A stretch of 64,000 nucleotides of DNA, from positions 1,536,001 through 1,600,000 of the forward strand of contig CAVVUN010000015.1 of NCBI GenBank assembly GCA_963751455.1, given 5' to 3'. Of this stretch, positions 7,256 to 30,099 are shown piece after piece (positions within the stretch are counted from its first letter, which is position 1; the number at the start of each line of letters is the position of its first letter). The position numbers and the translations under genes are program-made. The DNA comes from Nitrospirota bacterium (GTDB lineage Bacteria; Nitrospirota; UBA9217). The notes beneath the pieces were generated by a model that did no database searches, was not told the origin of the DNA, and saw nothing but the letters and a program-made list of their open reading frames with translations.

Positions 7256-7329
7256 AATATCTGAGCGCGGCAGTATCCTGCCAATAACTTGCGCCGTCAC
7301 CCCGACAGCTCCGCAATTGAATGTCTTTC

Positions 7330-13751: not shown

Positions 13752-14724
13752 ATGAGAAAGATCAGCCTGGAGATTGTTATTTCACTATCGTTTATTGCAG
13801 CCATGTTGCTTTCAGCCTGCGGTGGAAGCGGAGGCAGCGGTGGCGGCGCAGCAGCCGTAACATGGAAATCAGTGGCAATAGGATCTTCCCATACCGCAGC
13901 GATTGACAGCAACGGCAACCTGTGGACATGGGGGCTCAATATATACGGCCAACTCGGCGACGGGACTAATAACCAGAATAACACGCCTGCCAAAGCAGGC
14001 TCTGCCGCCGATTGGAAGACAATTGCGGCGTCCGGCGATAATGTCGCGATAAAAACGGATGGTACCTTGTGGGCATAGGGAATACTCAGGACAAGACCAT
14101 GCCGGGACTGCTGCTGACTGGAAAAGCGGAGCAATCACTGACCAAAATTCGTTTGCAATAAAGACTGATGGCACCCTCTGGGCATGGGGGGATAATTATT
14201 ATTATCAGCTCGGCATCGGCGATGACTGGAACGACAAATGGTCGCCGACTCAGGTAGGGACGGACACCGATTGGAAGGCGGTGTCGGCACGCTACCGTCA
14301 CGTTCTTGCCATAAAGACGGACGGTACGCTTTATACCTGGGGGGACAATGAGTACGGCCAGCTCGGGAACGGGGACAGCGGCAAATATAAGCAAGTAAAG
14401 GCCCCTGCCCGAATCGGCACAGATAGTGACTGGGCATCCGTATACGCCGGAAGCTACCATTCGTTCGCGTTGAAGACTGATGACACACTCTGGGCGTGGG
14501 GGTTAAACGGGGGCACGCTCGGAGACGGAACCACCGATCTCAAAAGTACGCCGACGATGATCGGCGCGGATACCGACTGGGCGTTCATCGCCACTCAGCA
14601 TGATATTACGTTCGCAATAAAAAATGACGGTTCGCTCTGGGCATGGGGGGAGAACATGTGGGGCCAGATCGGCGACGGAACCACGGACGACAAACTGATG
14701 CCGACCAGAATATCTGTCGAGTAA
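13752..14724 (+). pseudogene. RCC1-repeat lipoprotein, split by a nonsense codon and an apparent deletion
   Basis: Lipobox LSAC; repeats [20 protein letters not shown]; the second repeat reads DGTLWA-TAG (14076-14078) and resumes in another frame. Confidence 0.8.
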
Positions 14725-16103: not shown

Positions 16104-16436
16104 AAAAACCTGACTTTTTTCTTTTCTATCCGATATTCTTACTGATGAAAAGAAAGTTGCGGCGGTTTTATTCACGAACGAACATCCTTTTCGGTAGCTT
16201 CAGCATGGTGGTGTGAGCGAACCCGTGCCTTGAACGTTATAAAGCACCCCGAATAGACAAATTGAGATTCATTAAACAAGCCAGCTTCAAAAGCCGCCAT
16301 TTTTTTCGGCTTTAAAAGCAAAGGTTCCTGCGTCCGGCAAGCCAGCGTTTTATCGCGATAAAATCCCTTGACAGGATTCCCGGAAAAAAGCAAAAATAGG
16401 CTAAGAGTATCGGCAATACCTTGCCTACAAGGGCGC

Positions 16437-17729
16437 ATGACGAACGGCAATCAATTACCGAAGAATACAATATCATCAGGTGTCGAAAGTCTGGACACCC
16501 TTATCGACGGTTTTTCCATTGGGGACAATGTAGTCTGGGAAGTCGAATCCGGAACCGCCTACAGCACGTTCACCAGGAACTTCATTTCCCGGTCTTTCCA
16601 GGACGATCAAAAGGTCATTTACGTGAGTTTCAACCGGTCGCCGCAGACCGTGTTGAACGATCTGAACGCGATCATATCCCCCGATCACTTCACGCTGATT
16701 GATTGTTTCACTTCCGGGAAGGGGAAAAACGACAACACCTTTCTGAAATTTTACGAAAAAGCGGACGCGGGCGTCGTCAGGATAGAGGCTCCGCGCGACA
16801 TAGAACGGTTTACCTCGACCTTGAACGCAATCGAGGACCGGCTGCCGCCGGGCGCGCGCTACGTGTTTGACAGCCTTACCGGTATGCAGGACCTCTGGGG
16901 CGACGAAAACGATACACACCGGTTCTTTACCTATATGTGCCCGCGTCTCTACGATCTCGGCACCGTGGCCTACTGGATCCTCGAGAAAGAGGCGCACAGT
17001 CCGCGGTTCAAGGCGAACCTGCGGCACATTACGCAGGTCGTGTTCGATCTCGCAAAGCGCAAGAACAGCCTGTTCCTGAAGGCCCTGAAGCTGGAAGGAA
17101 GACAGGACCGGGAACTGTTCAAACCGCATCAATTCCACATCCGCGGCGACACTGTGGCGATTACTTCGCTCAAGCGCGAGCCGGCAACGGACATCGGCGA
17201 AAAACTGCGGGAGGAGCGGATCAGGGTCGGCATGAGCCAGAAAGAGCTTGCGGATAAGGTAGGTTTGACCGCAAGCTTTCTGTCGCAACTCGAAAACAAC
17301 CAGGTCAGTCCTTCCCTGAATACGTATATGCAGCTCTGCAGGGCGCTTGGCATCAACCCCGGGCACTTTCTCGGACCGATTGAGAAAAAGAACGAAACCA
17401 CGTGGCTGGTGCGAAGGGATGCCATATTTTCGAGAGTTCCGATCAAGGAGGACTACGCAAGGGTCTATGAAGCCGCATCCGGCAGAAAACTTGCGGCAAG
17501 GCTCGTTGTTCTGCCCGTAGGCGCTGCCATGAACCGGCACTTTTTTTATCATAAGGACGAAGAGTTTGTTTGCGTGCTTAACGGCACAGTATCAGTCACG
17601 GTCGAGGGCAGGGAAGAGATGGTCAAGGCAGGAGACATGCTCCATTTGCGCGATTCTTTTCCATCGCATTGGAAGAATGAAGGAGATAGGGAGGCTGAAT
17701 TACTTGTGCTATGGTCTGAAACTCTCTAA
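16437..17729 (+). CDS. Transcriptional regulator: degenerate RAD55/KaiC-like domain + XRE HTH + cupin
   Basis: SSGVESLDTLIDG..VFDSL; MSQKELADKVGLTASFLSQLENNQVSPSL; HKDEEFVCVLNG cupin. Confidence 0.88.
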   Translation: MTNGNQLPKNTISSGVESLDTLIDGFSIGDNVVWEVESGTAYSTFTRNFISRSFQDDQKVIYVSFNRSPQTVLNDLNAIISPDHFTLIDCFTSGKGKNDNTFLKFYEKADAGVVRIEAPRDIERFTSTLNAIEDRLPPGARYVFDSLTGMQDLWGDENDTHRFFTYMCPRLYDLGTVAYWILEKEAHSPRFKANLRHITQVVFDLAKRKNSLFLKALKLEGRQDRELFKPHQFHIRGDTVAITSLKREPATDIGEKLREERIRVGMSQKELADKVGLTASFLSQLENNQVSPSLNTYMQLCRALGINPGHFLGPIEKKNETTWLVRRDAIFSRVPIKEDYARVYEAASGRKLAARLVVLPVGAAMNRHFFYHKDEEFVCVLNGTVSVTVEGREEMVKAGDMLHLRDSFPSHWKNEGDREAELLVLWSETL

Positions 17730-18076
17730 TTAGTAAATTTTACAGGCGAAAATTTTTTATGTTCTTTATCAAGTATTGCTTAATTTAATTATTAAAAATT
17801 AATAAATACTAAGTCTTTATTTGGATCGAAGGGAATGTGGGCCTTCATCATCAGGACGCAGTTTTTAGAATTCCTTTCTATGACAAGAAGAAGGAGGTGG
17901 TTAAAGCTAGCTGCTTGTTCACTGGAAGGTTTTATTAATGTGGATTGCCTGGCTTTTTTTTGCCTTCCCTGTCAAGTAACGCTTAATTTATCTCAAAAAA
18001 CTTAATAGTAGCTAATGTATTTTAGTAATGATATTGACCCATCGCCAGGCAAAAACTAATTTAAAAGGAGAGAACC

Positions 18077-19669
18077 ATGAATCTGTCACAACCAAATGCC
18101 AATGAAGCGACCAGAACAGTCAATCGATCCAGAAGTGTTTCGCCCATGAGCGGGCTATGCACCCGCTGCGTGGACGGATGCAAGGGCAGCTGCGAGGTTT
18201 TTAAAGCGACGTACCGGGGACGGGAGTTGCTTTATCCGGGGCCTTTCGGAAGCATCACTGCCGGCGGCGACAAGAACTACCCGGTCGATTATTCTCACCT
18301 CAACATTCACGGATACGCGCTCGGCGCAAAGGGACTTCCTTCCGGTCAGAAAGGGGACCCCGACACTGCCCGCTTCCCGAATGTCAACACCGAGACAAGC
18401 TACGGCTGGGATAAAAAAGTGAAGATGAGGGTTCCGATCTTCACCGGGGCGCTCGGATCCACGGAGATCGCCCGCAAGAACTGGGAACACTTTGCCGTGG
18501 GCGCGGCGATATCAGGCGTCACGATCGTATGCGGTGAAAACGTGTGCGGCATCGATCCGGGACTCGAATTGAACAGCAGCAAAAAAGTGAAGAAGTCGCC
18601 CGACATGGACCGCAGGATCGAGACCTATAAAAAGTACCATCAGGGTTTCGGCGAACTCCTGGTGCAGATGAATGTCGAGGACACCCGGCTGGGCGTCGCG
18701 GAATATATCATTGAAAAGCACAAGCTCGAAACCATAGAGCTGAAGTGGGGCCAGGGCGCCAAGTGCATCGGCGGAGAGATCAAGGTGGACAGTCTGGAGC
18801 GCGCTCTTGAACTGCAGAAACGGGGCTATATCGTTACGCCCGACCCCTCTGATCCCGTGGTGCAGGCTGCTTTTAAAGAGACGGCGATCAAGGAATTTGA
18901 ACGTCACAGCCGCCTCGGGTTCATCGGCGAGCAGGAGTTTTACGCCGAGGTTAACCGGCTGCGGGGCCTGGGCTTCAAGCGTGTCACGCTAAAAACCGGC
19001 GCATACGGCCTGCGCGAGCTCGCCATGGCTATCAAGTGGTGCTCGAAGGCCAAGATCGACCTGTTGACCATCGACGGCGCACCGGGAGGCACAGGCATGA
19101 GCCCCTGGCGCATGATGGAAGAATGGGGCATGCCCTCCCTGTATCTCCATGCCGCAGCGGCTGAGTTCGCAAAGAAGCTGACAGATAAGGGAGAACGTGT
19201 TCCGGACATCGCTTTTGCCGGCGGCTTCAGCAGCGAGGACGGCATATTCAAGGCCCTGTCGCTTGGAGCGCCGTTCGTGAAGGCCATTTGCATGGGCCGC
19301 GCACTGATGATCCCGGGCATGGTCGGCAAGAACATCGCCCAGTGGATAAAGGAGAAGGACATTCCGAAGTCGGTAAGCGAGTATGGTTCCACGGTGGAAG
19401 AGATATTCGTAAACTACGAGGACGTGAAAAAGCTGGTCGGGAGCAAGGAGATCGCCAACATTCCGCTCGGCGCAATCGGCATTTACAGCTACTCAAACAA
19501 GATCAAAGTGGGACTGCAGCAGTTCATGGCGGGCGCCCGTTGCTTCAATCTCGATTCTATTACGAGGAACGAGCTGATGTCCCTCACCGAGGAATGCGCG
19601 AAGGTCACCGGCATACCGTACATCATGAATTCCTATCGCGATGAGGCGATGAAGATAATAAATTCCTGA
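18077..19669 (+). CDS. FMN-binding glutamate synthase family protein (stand-alone)
   Basis: IELKWGQGAKCIGGE, DGAPGGTG, AGGF, MGRA; N-terminal CTRCVDGCKGSC; SD AAGGAG. Confidence 0.9.
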   Translation: MNLSQPNANEATRTVNRSRSVSPMSGLCTRCVDGCKGSCEVFKATYRGRELLYPGPFGSITAGGDKNYPVDYSHLNIHGYALGAKGLPSGQKGDPDTARFPNVNTETSYGWDKKVKMRVPIFTGALGSTEIARKNWEHFAVGAAISGVTIVCGENVCGIDPGLELNSSKKVKKSPDMDRRIETYKKYHQGFGELLVQMNVEDTRLGVAEYIIEKHKLETIELKWGQGAKCIGGEIKVDSLERALELQKRGYIVTPDPSDPVVQAAFKETAIKEFERHSRLGFIGEQEFYAEVNRLRGLGFKRVTLKTGAYGLRELAMAIKWCSKAKIDLLTIDGAPGGTGMSPWRMMEEWGMPSLYLHAAAAEFAKKLTDKGERVPDIAFAGGFSSEDGIFKALSLGAPFVKAICMGRALMIPGMVGKNIAQWIKEKDIPKSVSEYGSTVEEIFVNYEDVKKLVGSKEIANIPLGAIGIYSYSNKIKVGLQQFMAGARCFNLDSITRNELMSLTEECAKVTGIPYIMNSYRDEAMKIINS

Positions 19670-19824
19670 TCAGAGCGAAGCAATCTCGAAGTTCCAAACT
19701 TGCAGAAAAAGGGAATTGAGCTTCGCGCAATGATGGCAGCGGAGACTTTTGCGAGAACTTCAAAATTGGCATGCACCCGTTCCGTCGGTTCAGCGGCGGA
19801 ACGGGTCATTTCCCGGGAGAGAAA

Positions 19825-20823
19825 ATGATAAATAAAACCCTTCACTCGATTCTTTCCGTACTTGACAAATATCCGATCATTGTCGGATCTCGCGAACTCT
19901 CAAAACAGCTAAAGCAGCACGGCGTGGAGCTGACCGAACGAACCGTGCGGTACTATCTGAAGAGGCTCGATGCGCGGGGCTATACCGAGGTGTTCGGCAA
20001 GGAAGGCAGGAAGATAACTCCGAGAGGAAGAGAGGAACTGAGCAATTCACTCGTTTCGGATAAGGTGGGATTTGTTATCAGCCGGATAGAAACGCTCTCC
20101 TACCTGACTTCGCTTGATATGGCGACGATGGAAGGGGATATTATCCTGAATATATCGTATTTTCCCAAGAATAAATTTAGTAAGGCAATGGATCTGCTGA
20201 AACCTGTCTTTGCTTCTCCGTATGTAATGAGCGATCGTGTTATGGTGGCTTCCAACGGAGATACCATCAACGATATCCCGGTCCCGAGGGGGATGGCTGC
20301 GCTCGGCACTGTCTGCAGCGTCACGATCAACGGCATATTTCTCAAAGCAGGAATCCCGGTAACGTCCCGGTTCGGCGGAGTCGTTGAGACTGCTGATGGG
20401 GCGCCAAAGCGGTTCGTGTCCGTCATCAGTTACGATGGATCGTCGCTGGATCCGCTTGAAATGTTCATTAAGAGTAAAATGACAGCGGTATCAAAAGCGG
20501 TTAATGGACGGTCCGGAAGAATTCTGGCCAGTTTCAGAGAAATTCCGGTTGTCTGCCTGGAAAAGGCAAAAAAACTCGCGAAGAGTATGACGGAAAGGGG
20601 AATCCGGGGCATTCTGATGATCGGAAGTCCGAACAAGCCTCTGCTCGAGATTCCTGTAGGAATTGACAAAGTGGGGGTTGTGATCGTTGGCGGCCTTAAT
20701 CCAATTGCTGTTCTGGAGGAGAACGGTATTGTCACCGACAGTAAAGCCATGTCCACGCTCTACGATTATACACGGCTCGTCTCATTCAGAAATGTTGCCA
20801 GGAACGGCCTTTCCCCAGCTTAA
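19825..20823 (+). CDS. nrpR: NrpR-family (DUF128) nitrogen regulator, wHTH + NRD domain
   Basis: LTERTVRYYL, ITPRGREEL, TVCSVTINGIFLKAGIP, YDGSSLDP, GGLNPIA. Confidence 0.88.
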   Translation: MINKTLHSILSVLDKYPIIVGSRELSKQLKQHGVELTERTVRYYLKRLDARGYTEVFGKEGRKITPRGREELSNSLVSDKVGFVISRIETLSYLTSLDMATMEGDIILNISYFPKNKFSKAMDLLKPVFASPYVMSDRVMVASNGDTINDIPVPRGMAALGTVCSVTINGIFLKAGIPVTSRFGGVVETADGAPKRFVSVISYDGSSLDPLEMFIKSKMTAVSKAVNGRSGRILASFREIPVVCLEKAKKLAKSMTERGIRGILMIGSPNKPLLEIPVGIDKVGVVIVGGLNPIAVLEENGIVTDSKAMSTLYDYTRLVSFRNVARNGLSPA

Positions 20824-21022
20824 TATCCTGATCCCGACAACTATTTAGGCTGTGTGGATCTATTCCCTTTTTTGATGGCATTATATTGCCGTGCAAACAC
20901 CGTGGGAGTCAGTCCTGCTGTCCGAACGCCCGCTGCGTCGGGATGGGCTTTTCTGATGTCCCAATAGGTCGAAATTGCGCCCGCGCTAAAAATTTCTTCT
21001 TTCTTCTCCCTGTAATTTTTTC

Positions 21023-21052
21023 TTGACACTCGAGCAGAAACCGGTGTATTGT
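21023..21052 (+). promoter_or_regulatory. Sigma70 promoter of the mvhD-metVF operon
   Basis: TTGACA, 18 nt, TATTGT. Confidence 0.6.
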
Positions 21053-21080
21053 ACTTTTCGACGGCAACGTTTTGCCGACG

Positions 21081-21110
21081 AAAAAGCCCCTCAGGGAGGG
21101 GCTTTTTTTT
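21081..21110 (+). terminator. Terminator hairpin in the mvhD leader
   Basis: AAAAAGCCCCTC-AGG-GAGGGGCTTTTTTTT. Confidence 0.8.
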
Positions 21111-21150
21111 GCCGCATTTTTAGGCAATCGATAGCGAAGAAGAGGCGGGA

Positions 21151-21609
21151 ATGAAGAAAGCGAACGAGTCAGAATACGCGCCCCGAATCGTGGTGGCTTA
21201 TTGTCATAATACGGTATCGCCCACCGAGGAACTGCGTGAGGGACAATATTCGGGAAAAGGGTTCAGCGCTTTTTTTGCCGCGCTGCCCTGTTCGAGCAAA
21301 ATTGAACCCTCCTATCCGGTTAAAATTCTGGCCGACGGGGCGGACGGAGTGGTGATTGTGGCATGTCCGGAGAGCCGCTGCAGGTTTATGGTAGGCAGTG
21401 TTCGGGCAGAGAAAAGGGTCAACTATGTGCGGGCCCTTTTGGATCAAGCGAAAATCGGCGCCGAGCGCGTCACCTTGGAACGCGGTGAAAGCCTTTCGAC
21501 AAAAGATCTTCTGGAGATCGCGCAGCGTCGTGTAAAGCCGTTGAATTTATTGGGACCCAATCCCATGAAAACATCAAAAAGAACCACAGAGCCCATCGAG
21601 AAAAAATAA
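21151..21609 (+). CDS. mvhD: MvhD/FlpD-type [2Fe-2S] subunit
   Basis: AYC..LPCSSKI..GADGVVIVACPESRCRF..G..ERV. Confidence 0.85.
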   Translation: MKKANESEYAPRIVVAYCHNTVSPTEELREGQYSGKGFSAFFAALPCSSKIEPSYPVKILADGADGVVIVACPESRCRFMVGSVRAEKRVNYVRALLDQAKIGAERVTLERGESLSTKDLLEIAQRRVKPLNLLGPNPMKTSKRTTEPIEKK

Positions 21610-21661
21610 ATAATCAACATCTCTGTGTTATCGAGTAACATCCCATAAGGGGGAATGGAAA

Positions 21662-22333
21662 ATGATCATAGCTGAATGGAAACCCCTGTCCGAACTGGTG
21701 GAAAAGCTGAAGGGGCATTCCAAAGTTCTGGTTGCAGGCTGCGCGACCTGTGTCGCCGAATGCGCCGCCGGCGGTGAACGTGAAGTGGAGACCCTGGCGC
21801 CGCTGCTGCAGATGGCCCTGCAGAAAGAAGGCTGCACCGTTACTGTTCGTACCAAGACGTTGGAGCGTCAGTGCGAATGGGAATTTGTGGAACAACTGGC
21901 CGATGTGGTGCCCGAGGTTGACGCAATCGTGAGTCTTGCCTGCGGCATCGGTGTTCAAGCACTGGCCGAGCGGTTCCCTGATCTATCGGTTTATCCCGGA
22001 GTGAACACAACCTCTCTGGCAATCCGGCAAGAGCCCGGAATCTGGCTTGCACGGTGCGCCGCGTGCGGCGATTGCGTTCTGGGCGAGACCTTCGGCCTGT
22101 GTCCGATCGCCCGCTGCGCAAAAAGCCTGTCGAACGGGCCGTGCGGCGGAACGAGAAAAGACGGGAAGTGCGAAATTGACGAGAACATCGACTGCGTCTG
22201 GTACCAGATCTACCAACGGGCAAAATCCCGGGGCAAGGTAGAGCAGCTCATAAAAGTCCGGAAGCCCAAGAACTGGTCGAACTCAGGCCACGGGGGCCCC
22301 AAACGGATGGTACGGGAGGATTTGCGGTCATGA
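21662..22333 (+). CDS. metV: Methylenetetrahydrofolate reductase small Fe-S subunit (MTHFR_C)
   Basis: GCATCVAECAAGG, RQCE, ACGIGVQ, CAACGDC..CPIARCAKSLSNGPCGG. Confidence 0.9.
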   Translation: MIIAEWKPLSELVEKLKGHSKVLVAGCATCVAECAAGGEREVETLAPLLQMALQKEGCTVTVRTKTLERQCEWEFVEQLADVVPEVDAIVSLACGIGVQALAERFPDLSVYPGVNTTSLAIRQEPGIWLARCAACGDCVLGETFGLCPIARCAKSLSNGPCGGTRKDGKCEIDENIDCVWYQIYQRAKSRGKVEQLIKVRKPKNWSNSGHGGPKRMVREDLRS

Positions 22334-23268
22334 CAAAAGCGGGTACCAGACTGGAAAAAACACTGCGCGCCGGGCATTTTGCCGTGACGGTCGAAGTGGG
22401 GCCGCCGCGCGGCGCTAATCCTGAAGATGTCGTGCGCAAGGCACGGACGCTCAAAGGCATTGCCGACGGATACAACGTCACCGACAACCAGACCGCAGTG
22501 GTGCGCTTGTCGAGCATTGCCGGCGCCCGGCTTCTGCTGGATGCCGGATGCGAGCCCGTCATGCAGATGACCTGCCGCGACCGCAACCGTATTGCCCTGC
22601 AGTCGGACCTGCTGGGCGCCTGGGCATTGGGAATGCGTAACTGCCTCTGCATTTCAGGCGACCATCAGAAAGCGAGCGCATCCGGAAAACTGAAAGGTCA
22701 TCCCGGCGCCAAGAACGTGTTTGACGTTGATTCGATCCAGTTGATCTCAATCATGAAAGATATGCGCGATGCGGGCGTTCTGGAGAGCGGGGACCCTATC
22801 TCCAGCCCCACGCCGTTTTTTATCGGTGCTGCGTGGACGCCGCTTGCACCGCCCGAGGAGTTCCGCGTACTGCGGCTTCAAAAGAAGATCGAGGCAGGTG
22901 CGGATTTTATTCAGACGCAGGCCGTATTCGACATGAAGCGGTTTGCGGCTGCGGTTTCAGCGGCGCGGGAGAGGGGCCTCACTGATAAAGCCGCCATTCT
23001 TGCGGGCATCATCGTTCCGAAATCAGCAAAGATGCTCGAATACATGAACGCCAATGTGCCGGGCGTGGAGGTTCCGGAATCCCTGATCAAGCGAATGGCC
23101 GGGGCCGCGAACCAGCGTGAGGAAGGGTTCAAGATTACAGTTGAGTTGATCCAGGCTGCCCGGGAGATTCCCGGTGTGAAGGGCGTGCATCTGCAGGCCA
23201 TCGAATCCGAAGAGGTACTGCCGGAGATCCTCAAATCTGCCGGACTCCTGCCGCGACCGCAAGTGTAA
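22330..23268 (+). CDS. metF: Methylenetetrahydrofolate reductase
   Basis: EVGPPRG, NVTDNQTA, QMTCRDRNRIALQSDL, KKIEAGADFIQTQ; ATGA overlap with metV. Confidence 0.95.
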   Translation: MTKAGTRLEKTLRAGHFAVTVEVGPPRGANPEDVVRKARTLKGIADGYNVTDNQTAVVRLSSIAGARLLLDAGCEPVMQMTCRDRNRIALQSDLLGAWALGMRNCLCISGDHQKASASGKLKGHPGAKNVFDVDSIQLISIMKDMRDAGVLESGDPISSPTPFFIGAAWTPLAPPEEFRVLRLQKKIEAGADFIQTQAVFDMKRFAAAVSAARERGLTDKAAILAGIIVPKSAKMLEYMNANVPGVEVPESLIKRMAGAANQREEGFKITVELIQAAREIPGVKGVHLQAIESEEVLPEILKSAGLLPRPQV

Positions 23269-23429
23269 ACTGACTCGGCCAAGTTTGAGCCAAAAAAGTC
23301 ACGGTATCGGTTACAACGCCCGTTTCGGTGAGCGGTCTATTTTTGGGCCAAGGCAACCATGTGCCGTAAAACCCGATAGCAAGAATTTGATCCGTAGCTG
23401 ACTACGTTCCCGGATGGTAATAAAACGAT

Positions 23430-26396
23430 ATGTCGAAGAAATATCACATCAAAGTTGAAAATGCGCCGGCCCGCTTTCCGGCCGTGGCCCGGTATTCCCA
23501 GTTGGAAACCGAGGGGTGTCTGGGCTGCCTTAAGTGCGTAAAACGTACCTCGTGCGTTTACTCCGTTCACGAAAAGCGCTCGTTCGATCCGGCCCAGATC
23601 GTGGATAAGGCCGATGCCGCGTGCGTGGGCTGCATGCAATGCGTCCAGGAATGCAAGAAGAACATTCTCAGCCGCGCAAAAAATCCCCGGTACGAAAAAA
23701 TGGGGAATGAGTACTGGACGCCGGCGCTCATTGCCGGCATCTGGAAGCAGGCAGAAACCGGCAAGATACCCGTATCCGGCGCCGGGTACCGCGGCCCGTT
23801 CAGCGGCCCGGGGTTCGATCGGATGTGGACCGACATGTCGGAAATCGTCAGGCCTACCCGCGATGGAATTCACGGCCGCGAATATATCAGTACGGTCATT
23901 GAACTCGGCCGAAAGCCCTCCAAGCTTGTTTTCGATGCTCAGGGCGGCATGGTGACCGAGCCTCCGCTGTTCATCGAACTGCCTCTTCCGATTGTAGTGG
24001 AAGCTCCGCGGTTCCCGCATGTATCGTCCCAAACAATCGAAGCCCTTGCCCAAGCAACGCATCGGAGCGGGACATTGATGCTTGTCGATGTGAAAGCCGC
24101 GCAGAATATTTCGCCCCGCCTGAGAAGCCGTGTGATGGTTATATTTAATCCGGAGAGGGATGATCCGGCCATTCTTAAAGACGTTCCAGCGGCCCAGATT
24201 GCCTATTCGGCAACCGTGCTGAAAGATATACAGAAACTAAAAAATGCAAAGCCTGATCTTGTTGTTTCCGTGCGCGTTCCCCTTGATGAAAATGCGGTAA
24301 AGCTTGCCAGCAAGCTTGCTCTTGCCGGGGTTGAGATTATCCATCTGTATGCGGATGCAAACGGCAGGGGAGTAAAAAACCGAAAAGCCGATTTTGTGAC
24401 CACGCTGCTGAAGGAAGTGCATTTCAAACTGGTCGATGAAGGCGTGCGCCAACAAGTGACAGTCCTGGTTTCCGGCGGCATTGCCATGGCCGAACATGTT
24501 GCCAAGGCGATACTCTGCGGGGCTGACGGCGTGGGCGCGGACATTGCGGTTTTGATCGCGATGGAATGCCGTTTATGCAAGGAATGCAATTCTGCCATTG
24601 CCTGCCCGGTAGACCTGGGCACGGTCCCGGTGGAATGGGCCGAGAAGCGGATCGTGAACCTGCTCGGTTCGTGGCACTCCCAACTGATCGAACTGATGGG
24701 CGCCATGGGTATCCGCGAGGTACGCCGTTTGCGGGGAGAACTGGGCAGGGCAATGTTTTTTGAAGACCTGGAGCGGGAGAATTTCGGCCCGCTGTTCGGA
24801 GAACGGGTGACGGGAAACCATGCAAAACCGCTGGTACTTCGTGACACCCCGCCGCCGGTTCACGGCAACGGACACGTGGAAACGCCGGGCGGTATTCATC
24901 TGGAAGTCAAAACCACTCCTTCCCGCTATCGCAACAAGTTCGGCAAGTTTAAAGTTGTGCGGACTTCCGCCTGCATTGCATGCGGTAAGTGCGCCGAGGT
25001 GTGCGCTTACGGCGTTCTGGTCAAGGCCGGCAGCCGCATGCTTGCCCCCAAATCTCATTTGTGTGTGGGCCGGGAACATTGCCGAAGCAAAAAACGGTTC
25101 TGCGCCGACAATTGCCCGAAAACTGCCCTGCGTGTAGGCAGAGATCCGGTTTTCGAAACGCTCGGAGATTCGCGGTGGACCCCGGATCTTCTGCTGGCGA
25201 CCTGGCATCAGGCCGAGACCGGCCGTCCGCCGAAAGGCGGACTGGAGTACCGGGTGGGAAATTCGGGCGGCGGGTTCGATTGCATGGACTTCAATTTCCC
25301 CGAGCAGCATCCGGATCCTTCTCTGAAGCCGCAGGACATAGACTTGTCCATTCCGCTTAATCGCAGGAAGGACGGCCGGCCCGAGGTGAAGATCGGGTTC
25401 CCGGTCTACGGCGGCGGAATGAGTTTCGGGTCCGTGAGCCTCACCACTATCGTTTCACGAGCGCGTGCGTACACAGCGATGAATTCATTCACCTGCACCG
25501 GTGAAGGCGGTTATCCGGAGGAGCTCAAACCGTACGATGATCATGTTATTACTCAGGTGGCGACCGGGCTGTTCGGAGTCCGCGAGGAAACCATTCAGCG
25601 GGTGCGCATCGTCGAATTCAAATATGCGCAGGGCGCGAAGCCGGGTCTCGGCGGTCACCTGCTCGGCGACAAGGTAACGCCTTCAGTGGCGAAAATGCGG
25701 GAAGCCGTGGTCGGTTCGGCCCTCTTTTCTCCGTTCCCGTTTCACTCGGTCTATTCGGTGGAGGACCACAAAAAGCATGTCGATTGGATGAAGGTGATCA
25801 ATCCCCGCGCCCTGGTTTCGGTCAAGGTTTCCACGCCTTCGGACGTGGACATGGTGGCCGTCGGTAGTTTTTACGCAGGCGCAAACATCATCCATCTTGA
25901 CGGAAGCTATGGAGGCACCGGCGCCGCACCGGACATCGCTAAAAAGAATATCGCGATGCCGATAGAATACGCCATACCCAAAGTGCACCGTTTTCTGATG
26001 AACGAGGGGATCCGCGACGAGATGACGCTGATCGTCTCGGGCGGCTTGCGTACTGCCTGGGATGTTGCCAAGGCGATTGCGCTTGGCGCCGACGGCGTCG
26101 TGATCGGCACGGCAGACATGGTGGCGCTCGAATGCATCCGGTGCGCAAATTGCGAGAGCGGACGGGGGTGTCCGCGCGGCATAGCCACAACCGATCCTGT
26201 ACTGACCAAGATGTATGACGAGGCGTGGGGCTCGCAGAGGCTCATAAATCTTTACCATTCCTGGATGCTGCAGCTCCAGGACATTCTCTGGCGTTTCGGC
26301 ATGAAGAGCGTGCGGGAACTGGTGGGTCGTTCGGACCTGTTAACGCACCGCGACTACGAGAAACGCACGGAATACCGGCGGGCGGAGTCAGGGTAA
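23430..26396 (+). CDS. Glutamate synthase-related protein with two tandem ferredoxin + FMN-binding modules
   Basis: CVGCMQCVQEC and CIACGKCAEVC ferredoxin motifs; second barrel has GMSFGS, TGEGG, EFKYAQGAKPGLGGHL, GGTGAA, CIRCANCESGRGCPRGIAT. Confidence 0.88.
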   Translation: MSKKYHIKVENAPARFPAVARYSQLETEGCLGCLKCVKRTSCVYSVHEKRSFDPAQIVDKADAACVGCMQCVQECKKNILSRAKNPRYEKMGNEYWTPALIAGIWKQAETGKIPVSGAGYRGPFSGPGFDRMWTDMSEIVRPTRDGIHGREYISTVIELGRKPSKLVFDAQGGMVTEPPLFIELPLPIVVEAPRFPHVSSQTIEALAQATHRSGTLMLVDVKAAQNISPRLRSRVMVIFNPERDDPAILKDVPAAQIAYSATVLKDIQKLKNAKPDLVVSVRVPLDENAVKLASKLALAGVEIIHLYADANGRGVKNRKADFVTTLLKEVHFKLVDEGVRQQVTVLVSGGIAMAEHVAKAILCGADGVGADIAVLIAMECRLCKECNSAIACPVDLGTVPVEWAEKRIVNLLGSWHSQLIELMGAMGIREVRRLRGELGRAMFFEDLERENFGPLFGERVTGNHAKPLVLRDTPPPVHGNGHVETPGGIHLEVKTTPSRYRNKFGKFKVVRTSACIACGKCAEVCAYGVLVKAGSRMLAPKSHLCVGREHCRSKKRFCADNCPKTALRVGRDPVFETLGDSRWTPDLLLATWHQAETGRPPKGGLEYRVGNSGGGFDCMDFNFPEQHPDPSLKPQDIDLSIPLNRRKDGRPEVKIGFPVYGGGMSFGSVSLTTIVSRARAYTAMNSFTCTGEGGYPEELKPYDDHVITQVATGLFGVREETIQRVRIVEFKYAQGAKPGLGGHLLGDKVTPSVAKMREAVVGSALFSPFPFHSVYSVEDHKKHVDWMKVINPRALVSVKVSTPSDVDMVAVGSFYAGANIIHLDGSYGGTGAAPDIAKKNIAMPIEYAIPKVHRFLMNEGIRDEMTLIVSGGLRTAWDVAKAIALGADGVVIGTADMVALECIRCANCESGRGCPRGIATTDPVLTKMYDEAWGSQRLINLYHSWMLQLQDILWRFGMKSVRELVGRSDLLTHRDYEKRTEYRRAESG

Positions 26397-29047
26397 TGAA
26401 AACTAAGATGAACACTATTTACAATTCGTGGCGCGGTACGGGCCGAGATCCGCGCTTCCCGGAAATTATTGCCGCATCGCGGGCCGGCCTTTTGACCGGC
26501 GCAGAACATGTACGGGAAAAAGACGCTGAGGAAGGCGGCTGCGGCGTGGTCGGGTTTGCAGCCACTGTGCCGGTGCGCGGGCGCCATATTTTCGAGCCGT
26601 CCATCCAGATGCACAACCGGGGTAACGGCAAAGGCGGCGGGATTGCTGCCGCTTCTCTTGAACCCGGGTACCTGGGAGTGGATGACGCGACCCTGCAAAA
26701 CGATTATATCCTCCAGATTGCGCTGATCGATCCGACCGCCGAGAAAGAGGTGGAGAAGTTCGGCATTGCCCCGTGGCTCCAGGTGGACCACAAAACCCGC
26801 ATACAACCCGTTGCGGACCACCGGGATGTCGGCCTGGATGTAAAGCCGCCGGATATCGTGAGATACTTTGTGCGCGTCAAGGACAAGGTGCTCAGCAAAT
26901 TTGCCAAGGAGCACGGATTGGAAAAATCCGACAGACGCCTGGTGGAGGATGAATTCATTTTTCGCAACAGTATTCAGATCAACCGCCGTTTTTACGCCTC
27001 CTTGGGCAACAAACGCGCCTTTGTAATGTCCCATGCGCGTAATCTCGTGATTTTCAAGATCGTGGGGTATGCTGAGCAGGTGGTGCAGTATTATCAGCTC
27101 TCCGATATGCGGGCCAGAATCTGGATCGCGCATCAGCGCTATCCCACCAAAGGCCGGGTATGGCATCCTGCGGGCGCACATCCGTTCATCGGGATGAATG
27201 AAGCGCTCGTCCATAACGGTGACTTTGCCAACTATTTCGGAGTGACCGAATACCTGCGGCAGCATAACCTCGTTCCCAATTTTTTGACCGATACGGAAGT
27301 CTCAGTTCTTCTTTTCGATCTGCTGACCCGCGTATACAATTATCCGCTTGAGTATGTGATCGAGGCAATGGCGCCTACGACAGAGAATGATTTCGATGCA
27401 TTGCCCGAACCGAAGAAGAAGATATACCGGGCCATTCAGGCGCAGCACATGCACGGATCGCCCGACGGCCCGTGGTTCTTCATCATCGCTCGGAGCAACC
27501 CGGACCAGCTTCAGTACCAGCTTCTGGGTATCACCGACACCTCAATGCTCAGACCGCAGGTGTTCGCGATCCAGGAGGGAGACGTATCCATCGGCCTGGT
27601 CGGTTCTGAAAAACAGGCCATCGATGCCACATTGAAATCCCTGGCCGAGGAGGACCCGCGCTTCCGTCATGTTGCCGACCGGTACTGGAATGCGCGCGGC
27701 GGCAGCCACACCGATGGCGGCGCGTTCGGTTTTACGGTAAAGACGGTCAACGGTAATACGATGCTTTCCTGTGCCGACAAATTCGGTAACCCCATCACTG
27801 CGCCGGCCGGTCAGTGGAGAATCGACGAGAAGGGGAGCATTACCATAGCTGAACAATGGCGCACCCGGATCGCAAACGGCCTTTCAAGCGGCAGCGCTGC
27901 CGAATTATTCAAGGATCTGACTACTGAGTTTCGCTCCTGGGGTCTTGACCAGGTTCGCGAAGCAATTGACGAGATTTGCACGGCTGCCGGCGGCGGTGAT
28001 CGGAATTTAGAGGCGGCTCTGGAGGTGCTCTCGCTCCTGCAGGACCGCCGATACGATTGCGGCCCCAATAAAAGAAGCGCGATTCTCCACCTTATTCAGG
28101 GAGGGATTGACCGGCTTCTTGACTCGGTGCCGGCAATAACAAGCAACGGCTCCGGCCGATATCGCCGGGTGGATTTCTCCACACGCAATCAGCTTGCTGC
28201 GCCGCGGAGAGAAGACGCTATTCTGGTGGTCTTCAGCCGGGATTTCCAGCCTGAGGGGGACGATTGCGATGCCTTGCTGATGGTCCAGGCATACCGGCAG
28301 GGCTGGAAGCGGTTCATCGTGTACGGGCTGAAGGGTCAGCGGTTCACCGGATGCAGCTTCGGACCTGCATCCGATGGGGTCCGCATCGACGTATACGGCA
28401 GTTCAGGCGACTATATAGCATCCGGCATCGACGGAATGGAACTCCATATTCACGGCAACGGCCAGGACCAACTCGGTCAGATACTCAAACGCGGTACGCT
28501 CGTGGTTCACGGCGATGTGGGCCAGGCGTTCATGTATGGTGCAAAAGGCGGCGAGATATTCATCATGGGCAATGCAGCCGGCCGTCCGCTGATCAATGCA
28601 GCGGGCCGTCCGCGCGTCATCATCAACGGAACCTGCCTCGATTTTCTCGCGGAGTCTTTTATGGCCGGCGATCCCTTCAACGGCGGCGGGTTCGTTGTGC
28701 TGAACGGAATAGAATTCGACGACCGTGGCACGGTCCGCGACCAGCATTCGCCGTACCCTGGAGCAAACCTTTTTTCGCTTGCCTCGGGCGGGGCAATTTA
28801 CGTACGGGACCCTCATTCCACAATCGGCAAAGATAAGCTGAACGGCGCCGAGTTCGCCGAAATGACCAATGAGGATTGGAACCTGATTGAGCCATATCTT
28901 CGTAAAAACGAGCTGCATTTCGGTATTTCCATCGAACGAGATCTGCTCGTTATTGACGGCAAACCCAGTTCGCCGCTGTCGGTCTACCGGAAAGTGCGTC
29001 CGGTGAAAGTGGCGGCCCTTGCGAAGCAAACTGTTCCTGCTGATTAA
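26396..29047 (+). CDS. Glutamate synthase-type Ntn amidotransferase + GXGXG domain protein
   Basis: EEGGCGVVG (Ntn Cys after a propeptide), AHQRYPT, VHNGDFAN, C-terminal GXGXG repeats; TAATG overlap with the upstream gene. Confidence 0.88.
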   Translation: MKTKMNTIYNSWRGTGRDPRFPEIIAASRAGLLTGAEHVREKDAEEGGCGVVGFAATVPVRGRHIFEPSIQMHNRGNGKGGGIAAASLEPGYLGVDDATLQNDYILQIALIDPTAEKEVEKFGIAPWLQVDHKTRIQPVADHRDVGLDVKPPDIVRYFVRVKDKVLSKFAKEHGLEKSDRRLVEDEFIFRNSIQINRRFYASLGNKRAFVMSHARNLVIFKIVGYAEQVVQYYQLSDMRARIWIAHQRYPTKGRVWHPAGAHPFIGMNEALVHNGDFANYFGVTEYLRQHNLVPNFLTDTEVSVLLFDLLTRVYNYPLEYVIEAMAPTTENDFDALPEPKKKIYRAIQAQHMHGSPDGPWFFIIARSNPDQLQYQLLGITDTSMLRPQVFAIQEGDVSIGLVGSEKQAIDATLKSLAEEDPRFRHVADRYWNARGGSHTDGGAFGFTVKTVNGNTMLSCADKFGNPITAPAGQWRIDEKGSITIAEQWRTRIANGLSSGSAAELFKDLTTEFRSWGLDQVREAIDEICTAAGGGDRNLEAALEVLSLLQDRRYDCGPNKRSAILHLIQGGIDRLLDSVPAITSNGSGRYRRVDFSTRNQLAAPRREDAILVVFSRDFQPEGDDCDALLMVQAYRQGWKRFIVYGLKGQRFTGCSFGPASDGVRIDVYGSSGDYIASGIDGMELHIHGNGQDQLGQILKRGTLVVHGDVGQAFMYGAKGGEIFIMGNAAGRPLINAAGRPRVIINGTCLDFLAESFMAGDPFNGGGFVVLNGIEFDDRGTVRDQHSPYPGANLFSLASGGAIYVRDPHSTIGKDKLNGAEFAEMTNEDWNLIEPYLRKNELHFGISIERDLLVIDGKPSSPLSVYRKVRPVKVAALAKQTVPAD

Positions 29048-29134: not shown

Positions 29135-29354
29135 ATTTGATGACGAGTCCAAATGCATTGGTTGCGGCTTTGTGCCGGTGTCAGCCCATGCGCGCGTGGG
29201 AGAAATAGCCCTTTGCCCGGACATGGTGAAGGGCTTTTTATTATTTGAAATTCATATTGATGCAATGGAAAAAATATTATATGCTATATGCGGATGATTC
29301 TGATTGGCAGAACCGTCTTATTATCATTCGGGAAATCGGTATAAGGAGCAAACC

Positions 29355-30099
29355 ATGCCGGAACAGTTCAAGATCACCTATCAATTCAGATTGAGCAGCG
29401 GAATCGAAAAGAAATTTACTCTCGTGCTTGACGGCAAGACGCTCTCTTTGATACAGGAACAGAAAAATGACCGTCCGGAATGGGCCCGCCTGGAGTTTCA
29501 TCAGTGCGCGAACTGTCCGCTTAATACTACCCTTACACCCTATTGTCCGATTGCAGTCAATCTTTCCGGTGTTGCCTGGGAATTCGGGGAAATTACCTCT
29601 GAAGAAAAGGCAGCCATTACCGTCGTTGTAAAAGAACGTGCCTATTTCAAGGCGGCGATCAATACAGGAGGGGCTGAGCCCTCTGCTCGGCATCATCATG
29701 GCATGCAGCGGATGTCCGGTCATGGAACCGCTCAAGCCGATGGTCCGCTACCACCTCCCATTCGCAAGCCTGGATGAGACAGTCTTCAGGATGACTTCAA
29801 TGTTCCTGATGGCGCAATTCTTACGCAGCCAGTCAGGCAAAAAACCTGAATGGAAACTGGATGGTTTGGCAAAAATATATGCAGAGGTCAAAAAATTGAA
29901 CAAGGACTTCGGGAAAAGAATGATAACGGCGGCACGAAATGATGCAAACGTTCATGCACTTGTAAATTTGAACGTTTTCGCGGTCATGGTGCCGATGAAG
30001 GCTGAAAACATGATGAAGGAGATCGCGCCTTACTTCTCAGTCTTACCTGAGGTAGTCGGGTTTATTTGTCAAAGCCCCGGGAGCAAAGGTACTAATTAA
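29355..30099 (+). CDS. Cys-containing hypothetical protein (DUF6901-like), frameshifted near 29650
   Basis: WARLEFHQCANCPL..CPIA (ORF 29304) continues as QEGLSPLLGIIMACSGCP..KPMVRYHLPFA (ORF 29638); SD AAGGAG. Confidence 0.7.

Follow-up and report, generated by a model that had tools for sequence, protein, structure and literature searches.

The nrpR locus

The stretch of DNA analysed here (the window) comprises 64,000 nucleotides of contig CAVVUN010000015.1 from a 5.7-Mb Nitrospirota genome (labelled G000, hereafter the source genome). It contains a locus in which xre, a stand-alone flavin mononucleotide (FMN)-domain gene of the glutamate-synthase family, nrpR, mvhD, metV, metF and the two genes of a split glutamate synthase follow one another on the forward strand (Table 1). 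The palindrome WCGGYAA-N4-TTRCCGW lies at the promoters of xre and mvhD and, from comparison with related genomes, is very probably the operator through which the single-domain NrpR encoded at the locus would repress both. An earlier interpretation of this DNA from its letters alone (the sequence-only reading) had named the XRE-cupin, stand-alone FMN, nrpR, mvhD, metV, metF and double-FMN genes, and these identities hold.

Table 1. Coordinates of genes, promoters and predicted regulatory sites at the locus, numbered from the first letter of the window; a point in the strand column marks features without a strand.
Feature	Position	Strand	Remarks
xre promoter, sigma-70-type	16368-16397	+	-35 TTGACA, 18-base spacer; same placement in relatives
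Predicted operator 1 of xre promoter (string 16412)	16410-16427	.	17.0 bits, rank 5; conserved
xre	16437-17729	+	Regulator with KaiC/RecA-like domain, XRE helix-turn-helix and cupin
Predicted operator 2 of xre promoter (site 16446)	16444-16461	.	22.0 bits, rank 2; inside first xre codons
Extra tandem box 2 pair	17768-17814	.	30 bases apart; 16.4 and 8.4 bits; best tandem pair in genome
Likely xre-controlled promoter	17951-18017	+	T-run and -35 TTGCCT (17960-17965); box 2 at 17971 and 18001
Stand-alone FMN-domain gene, glutamate-synthase family	18077-19669	+	PF01645
nrpR	19825-20823	+	Winged helix and single NRD domain, 332 amino acids; PF08461 51 bits, PF01995 282 bits, both over cut-off
Putative auxiliary or relic site (string 20877)	20875-20892	.	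17.1 bits, rank 4; 186 bases upstream of main operator
mvhD operon promoter, sigma-70-type	21023-21052	+	Conserved in relatives
Main predicted operator (string 21063)	21061-21078	.	22.8 bits, best in genome; conserved
G+C hairpin and T-run in mvhD leader	21081-21110	+	Terminator-like
mvhD	21151-21609	+	PF02662
metV	21662-22333	+	PF12225
metF	22330-23268	+	PF02219
Decayed copy of dispersed miniature inverted repeat (string 23352)	23343-23367	.	
Split glutamate synthase, double FMN/ferredoxin gene	23430-26396	+	PF01645 / PF01493 / PF13522 for both split genes
Split glutamate synthase, amidotransferase-GXGXG gene	26396-29047	+	PF01645 / PF01493 / PF13522 for both split genes

A palindrome longer than eight bases

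The sequence-only reading had reported GGCA-N6-TGCC four times without mismatch (16412, 20877, 21063 and 23352) and once with a single mismatch (17951). All five strings are present, and all are intergenic if xre starts at ATG 16437; a longer xre open reading frame from 16368 starts at the TTG of the -35 box. The 8-base pattern has seven perfect matches in the window against 1.15 expected, three of which (7269, 9118 and 38623) had been omitted, and its one-mismatch matches are near chance (43 against 30.9 expected). Scanning the whole genome gave no enrichment (150 matches, 23 intergenic, with 138-221 matches, 19-53 intergenic, for the other spacers from 0 to 12), and the intergenic counts are generous because the gene calls, made with our own simple script, are only 76% coding. 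The published GGAA-N6-TTCC is not enriched genome-wide either (184 matches, 26 intergenic), and its two matches at the locus are both coding.

Phylogenetic footprinting, which covered Nitrospirota loci around nrpR, confirmed that the motif is conserved in relatives, where the true element is the longer palindrome (consensus core of the matrix GGYAA-N4-TTRCC). A position-weight matrix was built from 55 operator sites of relatives, with scores in bits, and used to rank the whole source genome. Four of the five best sites lie at this locus (21063, 16446, 20877 and 16412), among them site 16446, which the earlier interpretation had overlooked; rank 3 is a coding site on another contig (18.8 bits). 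The strings at 23352 and 17951 score 10.6 and -2.0 bits (ranks 49 and 3225). Elsewhere in the window, sites at 7269 (-1.2 bits), 9118 (10.8), 38623 (-4.5) and 1996 (11.4) are not treated as operators.

The training sites had been selected for their resemblance to a consensus that itself originated in the window motif, and the matrix was therefore tested on 80 metagenome nrpR loci. It found 42 sites of at least 15 bits in 548,825 bases, within 30 of the 80 loci, and 41 of them lie close to where an xre, glutamate-synthase-family, mvhD or glnA gene begins. The reversed matrix found none and 20 permuted matrices found 0-2.

The palindrome occupies a narrow position at the promoter. Among 142 promoter-linked sites it begins a median of 9 bases after the sigma-70 -10 box (10-90% range 6-15), transcription starts being inferred rather than mapped, and the string at 21063 does lie just downstream of the -10 box, as had been noted. 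The variable position reads C-G in 63 of these sites, T-G in 40, C-A in 27, T-A in 8 and C-T in 4; the two half-sites thus vary independently, as expected of a DNA site and not of an RNA stem. Some sites retain a GGAAA half. In sigma-54 promoters GG and GC are 10 bases apart, and in the motif they are separated by 9.

Two promoters carry the element

At the xre promoter, the two predicted operators are spaced 34 bases apart, and in close relatives the second-best site is also 34 bases off in 14 of 15 cases (at least 11 bits in 11 of 15); conservation of operator 2 may be helped by protein constraint, because it lies inside the first xre codons. Each of the 53 nrpR-bearing loci has a site of at least 5 bits upstream of xre, and 49 have one of at least 11 bits; the three loci whose genomes have no nrpR match score -17.4, -10.8 and 11.0 bits.

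The amidotransferase gene of the mvhD operon is matched in 10 of the 401 genomes sampled. All five nrpR-bearing genomes with the operon have the operator on its promoter. Among the five without an nrpR match, two have the site (G343 and G013), two do not (G135 and G230), and in G174 the contig ends first. What this promoter-operator drives in most relatives is a three-gene glutamate synthase of the NAD(P)H type, which the source genome lacks; a second metV/metF pair lies elsewhere in this genome. We infer that mvhD-metVF serves the glutamate synthase. The proposal that nitrogen controls mvhD-metVF thus stands as to the site on the promoter, and these genes make better sense at the head of a glutamate-synthase operon than as a nitrogen-controlled folate pathway. 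A weak third operator-like site (21121-21138, 9.4 bits) lies 60 bases downstream of the main operator. Two relatives (L026 in G009, L029 in G031) have a duplicated nrpR and, in tandem, a split glutamate-synthase operon of either type, with one nrpR copy in front of each.

The motif had been placed before four transcription units; we count only two promoters, because the string at 17951 is not an operator and that at 23352 probably is not one either. String 23352 derives from a dispersed repeat and has lost one base; the core of this repeat is present 23 times, on several contigs of the source genome. The element is about 60 bases long, with inverted ends TGGACCRAG and a core GGCAA-N5-TTGCC, which accounts for the excess of that spacer in the genome-wide spacer scan. 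Six orthologous metF-glt spacers contain no site, none scoring above -5 bits, and 23352 is likely not an operator. The string at 17951 consists of the T-run and -35 box of another conserved promoter, its right half being TTGCCT.

The strong site at 20877 is a putative auxiliary or relic operator. It is not conserved (in each of the 26 other nrpR-downstream regions where a site occurs, it is the only one), no promoter adjoins it, and, considered as the relic of a second promoter cassette, it has no nucleotide similarity to any fetched locus. Chance is an unlikely origin for it, because only one other site that good exists outside the locus in 5.7 Mb.

NrpR and the distribution of the palindrome

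The nrpR product is 32% identical to the MJ0159 NRD domain (PDB 3NEK, E 1.9e-32), and its structure model superposes on 3NEK with a template modelling score of 0.88 over the target. A helix reading ERTVRY is invariant in 22 aligned homologues and appears as ERAVRY/ERVVRY in four two-domain proteins, two labelled as from methanogens; this shared motif, ER[TA]VRY, marks a putative recognition helix. Domain content, fold and helix motif place the protein in the NrpR family.

The 401 genomes were sorted by matches to nrpR (98 genomes) and to the xre N-terminal domain (73 genomes): 70 have both, 28 nrpR without xre, 3 xre only and 300 neither. A strict form of the palindrome was searched for in each class, with the reversed pattern as control. 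It is detected in 59 of the 70 genomes with both genes (control 12), in 21 of the 28 with nrpR and no xre match (control 1) and in 1 of the 3 with xre only, and it is at background in those with neither (61 of 300, control 77). When the training genomes are left out, 16 of 22 genomes with nrpR and no xre match have it (control 0). The motif is thus not confined to xre-bearing genomes. Around pattern matches in 25 of these 28 genomes, 45 loci were fetched, and in 39 the site precedes glnA, amidotransferase-glnA, nifA, glnB/glnK-amtB or glutamate-synthase genes (in 6 it does not).

A second palindrome linked to xre

A different palindrome, TTWAGYA-W-TRCTWAA (box 2), occurs in tandem downstream of xre. 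In 52 of 60 xre-downstream spacers, a T-run and a -35 box are followed 5 bases later by two copies of box 2, 30-31 bases apart, and the source genome has a single match to this architecture. The strict box 2 pattern is detected in 19 of 34 held-out xre-bearing genomes, 2 of 28 with nrpR and no xre match, 1 of 3 with xre only and none of 5 with neither. In one family (f16), box 2 lies between the -35 and -10 boxes of the promoter of xre itself, which points to repression by the XRE protein. Box 2 is likely the operator of the xre product, as predicted from its distribution, and literature searches did not match it to any described site.

The gene behind box 2 is the FMN-domain gene, for which no PDB sequence match was found, and in two genomes it is a glutamate dehydrogenase gene. 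In these two (L035/L036 in G024 and G032), the place between xre and nrpR, behind the same box 2, is taken by glutamate dehydrogenase instead of the FMN-domain gene, and a divergent gene of 879 amino acids shares the N-terminal domain of xre. In two others (L258 in G313, L259 in G131), xre is apparently mostly deleted, with the NrpR site and box 2 remaining. The gene guarded by box 2 is followed by nrpR, and none of 109 gap rows, which include some loci twice, contains a TTGAC-type promoter, so the locus could form a double-negative loop. G337 and G144 speak against a fixed two-repressor logic, since their FMN gene or gdhA lies directly under an NrpR site.

A terminator-like hairpin behind the operator

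Of the long glutamate-synthase leaders, 32 of 36 have a G+C hairpin with a T-run behind the operator, as do 6 of 11 mvhD leaders, and the hairpin also occurs where the genes are divergent. It is found in 2 of 21 other long leaders and at 2 of 242 promoters of the source genome. Our best guess is a leaky attenuator. Covariation in 18 close leaders is weak (term -0.05, 2 of 13 pairs with two-sided change) and does not support the hairpin. Rfam gave nothing at the gathering score in the window and four weak sub-threshold matches in six loci. With neither compensatory pairing nor a known family, the leader does not qualify as a structured cis-regulatory RNA.

Two further features lie elsewhere in the window. 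A DUF6901 gene (29304-30099) is in two overlapping open reading frames that cover profile positions 1-95 and 92-221, likely by a frameshift, and a repeat-protein gene (13752-14724), RCC1-like by eye, is seemingly split over two frames near 14059-14078.

Alternative explanations

Several observations weigh against the assignment of the palindrome to NrpR. The matrix ranks 1-5 are not fully independent of the window motif, some of the 80 metagenome loci may be near-identical to training genomes, and the co-occurrence counts are not usable as test statistics because related genomes are not independent. The strict pattern is absent from 7 of the 28 genomes with nrpR and no xre match and from 11 of the 70 with both genes. 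In one genome that has no nrpR or xre match (G343, 100% complete, 5 contigs), mvhD is preceded by a 26.6-bit site, and another genome with no nrpR match (G013, 86% complete) has one of 18.1 bits. At the third position of each half the bacterial consensus has C or T, where excerpts describing the Methanococcus operator give A. Finally, the sequence-only reading had expected sites at glnA, amtB/glnK and nif; the source genome has none upstream of glnB-glnA, amtB, glnK or nif, and its nifH, nifB-like and amt/glnK genes have sigma-54-type promoters, while other Nitrospirota do have such sites.

The site in G343 is what one would expect if an unlinked regulator of these lineages bound the palindrome and nrpR only travelled with the same genes. 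We regard this as very unlikely, since genomes with neither gene are at background, the geometry is that of the known NrpR operator, and in the genus-mates of G343 the site is either decayed (G363, 16.8 and 11.0 bits) or missing (G230), the pattern that a recent loss would leave. The XRE-cupin protein could instead bind the palindrome and autoregulate, being a DNA-binding protein whose own promoter has two sites and whose gene is accompanied by nrpR in 70 of 73 genomes. This is extremely improbable, given that the motif persists at nitrogen genes in most of the genomes that have nrpR but no xre match, that the site is lost or weak where xre remains and nrpR is not found, and that a different box tracks xre.

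The palindrome is always in the transcribed leader and can fold as a 6-pair hairpin; it might work in the transcript, as a 5' hairpin recognised by an antiterminator, which would control the terminator-like hairpin so frequent behind it in glutamate-synthase and mvhD leaders. Against this very unlikely mechanism, the variable position shows no compensation in the 142 sites, most other targets lack the terminator, and no Rfam family matches. That the cluster of strings is merely chance plus repeats is true of 23352 and 17951 and agrees with the flat genome-wide count of the 8-base pattern. As an account of the whole cluster it has next to no probability, because 16412, 16446 and 21063 are backed by conservation, position and controls, and chance was already refuted for the core sites by the 80-locus metagenome test. 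NrpR is accordingly the preferred reader of the palindrome. The idea that it uses a variant operator is upheld by the geometry shared with the Methanococcus site, by conservation and by NrpR being likelier than XRE, and it does not extend to 23352 and 17951.

Proposed regulation

NrpR would repress the xre and mvhD promoters when nitrogen is plentiful and release them when 2-oxoglutarate rises, the role of 2-oxoglutarate as inducer being carried over from the archaeal protein. A dimer would bind the palindrome via the winged helix and block initiation, and the two xre sites might be bound cooperatively. The genes mvhD-metV-metF and both glutamate-synthase genes would form one transcript from the promoter at 21023. 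In the source genome the predicted regulon appears local, comprising xre and the glutamate-synthase operon; other Nitrospirota would add glnA, nifA and glnK-amtB. The nif and amt/glnK cluster of the source genome (G000:C15:1046653-1083052) has five sigma-54-type promoters and, by eye, a PAS kinase and response-regulator pair beside it; no protein closely matching the GAF domain of relatives' NifA was found.

A two-repressor switch is possible, if doubtful: NrpR would repress xre, and XRE would repress, at its promoter, the FMN-domain (or glutamate dehydrogenase) gene together with nrpR behind it. If so, such a double-negative loop would switch the cell back and forth between a nitrogen-rich route (the stand-alone FMN enzyme or glutamate dehydrogenase) and a nitrogen-poor route (glutamate synthase fed by MvhD-MetVF), with the leader terminator as a second control.

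A defined site lets nitrogen regulons be read from the genomes of uncultured Nitrospirota and opens the study of an archaeal repressor working on sigma-70 promoters. It also links the MvhD-MetVF module with the synthesis of glutamate and not with folate metabolism, and box 2 and the hairpin of the leader add up to a concrete circuit. Taken by itself, the motif differs from a known operator by one base, which limits the surprise.

Comparison with known systems

Literature searches found no described bacterial NrpR operator or regulon; subscription journals, RegPrecise and supplements were outside their scope and may hold one. Methanococcus NrpR has two NRD domains. The protein described here shares its winged helix, its NRD family and the repressor-type position of its site at the transcription start, and differs from it in having one NRD domain and a bacterial host with sigma-70 promoters. 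The NRD domain of MJ0159 resembles that of nrpR in fold and sequence, and its structure cannot explain the changed base preference because it lacks the DNA-binding domain.

Excerpts of PMC2723118 give GGAA-N6-TTCC as the operator of Methanococcus maripaludis NrpR, with nif, glnA and glnK-amtB as targets, and mention NrpR in certain bacteria. Against that description, the palindrome of the source genome is likewise an inverted repeat of 14 bases that ends in GG...CC and is spaced in the same way; its consensus is GGYAA-N4-TTRCC and not GGAA-N6-TTCC, and because the geometry is the same we class it as a variant operator. The target classes reported in those excerpts (glnA, nif control and glnK-amtB) recur in relatives of the source genome. 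Here, however, nif is reached via nifA, the main targets are split glutamate synthases, and the source genome has two promoters only. Release of archaeal NrpR by 2-oxoglutarate is stated in excerpts of PMC9765008 and PMC11957540, and the former describes archaeal NrpR levels as not nitrogen-regulated; unlike the archaeal gene so described, the bacterial nrpR lies in or behind the site-bearing cluster.

The xre product resembles XRE-cupin repressors such as PuuR in its XRE helix-turn-helix and cupin, with a weak match to the PuuR model, and in the tandem A/T-rich palindromes over the promoter, and differs from PuuR-type repressors in its extra N-terminal KaiC/RecA-like domain. The nearest parallel to the two-step arrangement is NtrC-Nac of E. 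coli, where a nitrogen sensor controls a second regulator, which may switch off the gene of a glutamate-forming enzyme. The NrpR site on xre, followed by the xre-linked box on the FMN-domain or glutamate dehydrogenase gene, would have the same layout; the proteins are unrelated, and both steps here would be repression, the sign of the second being suggested by position.

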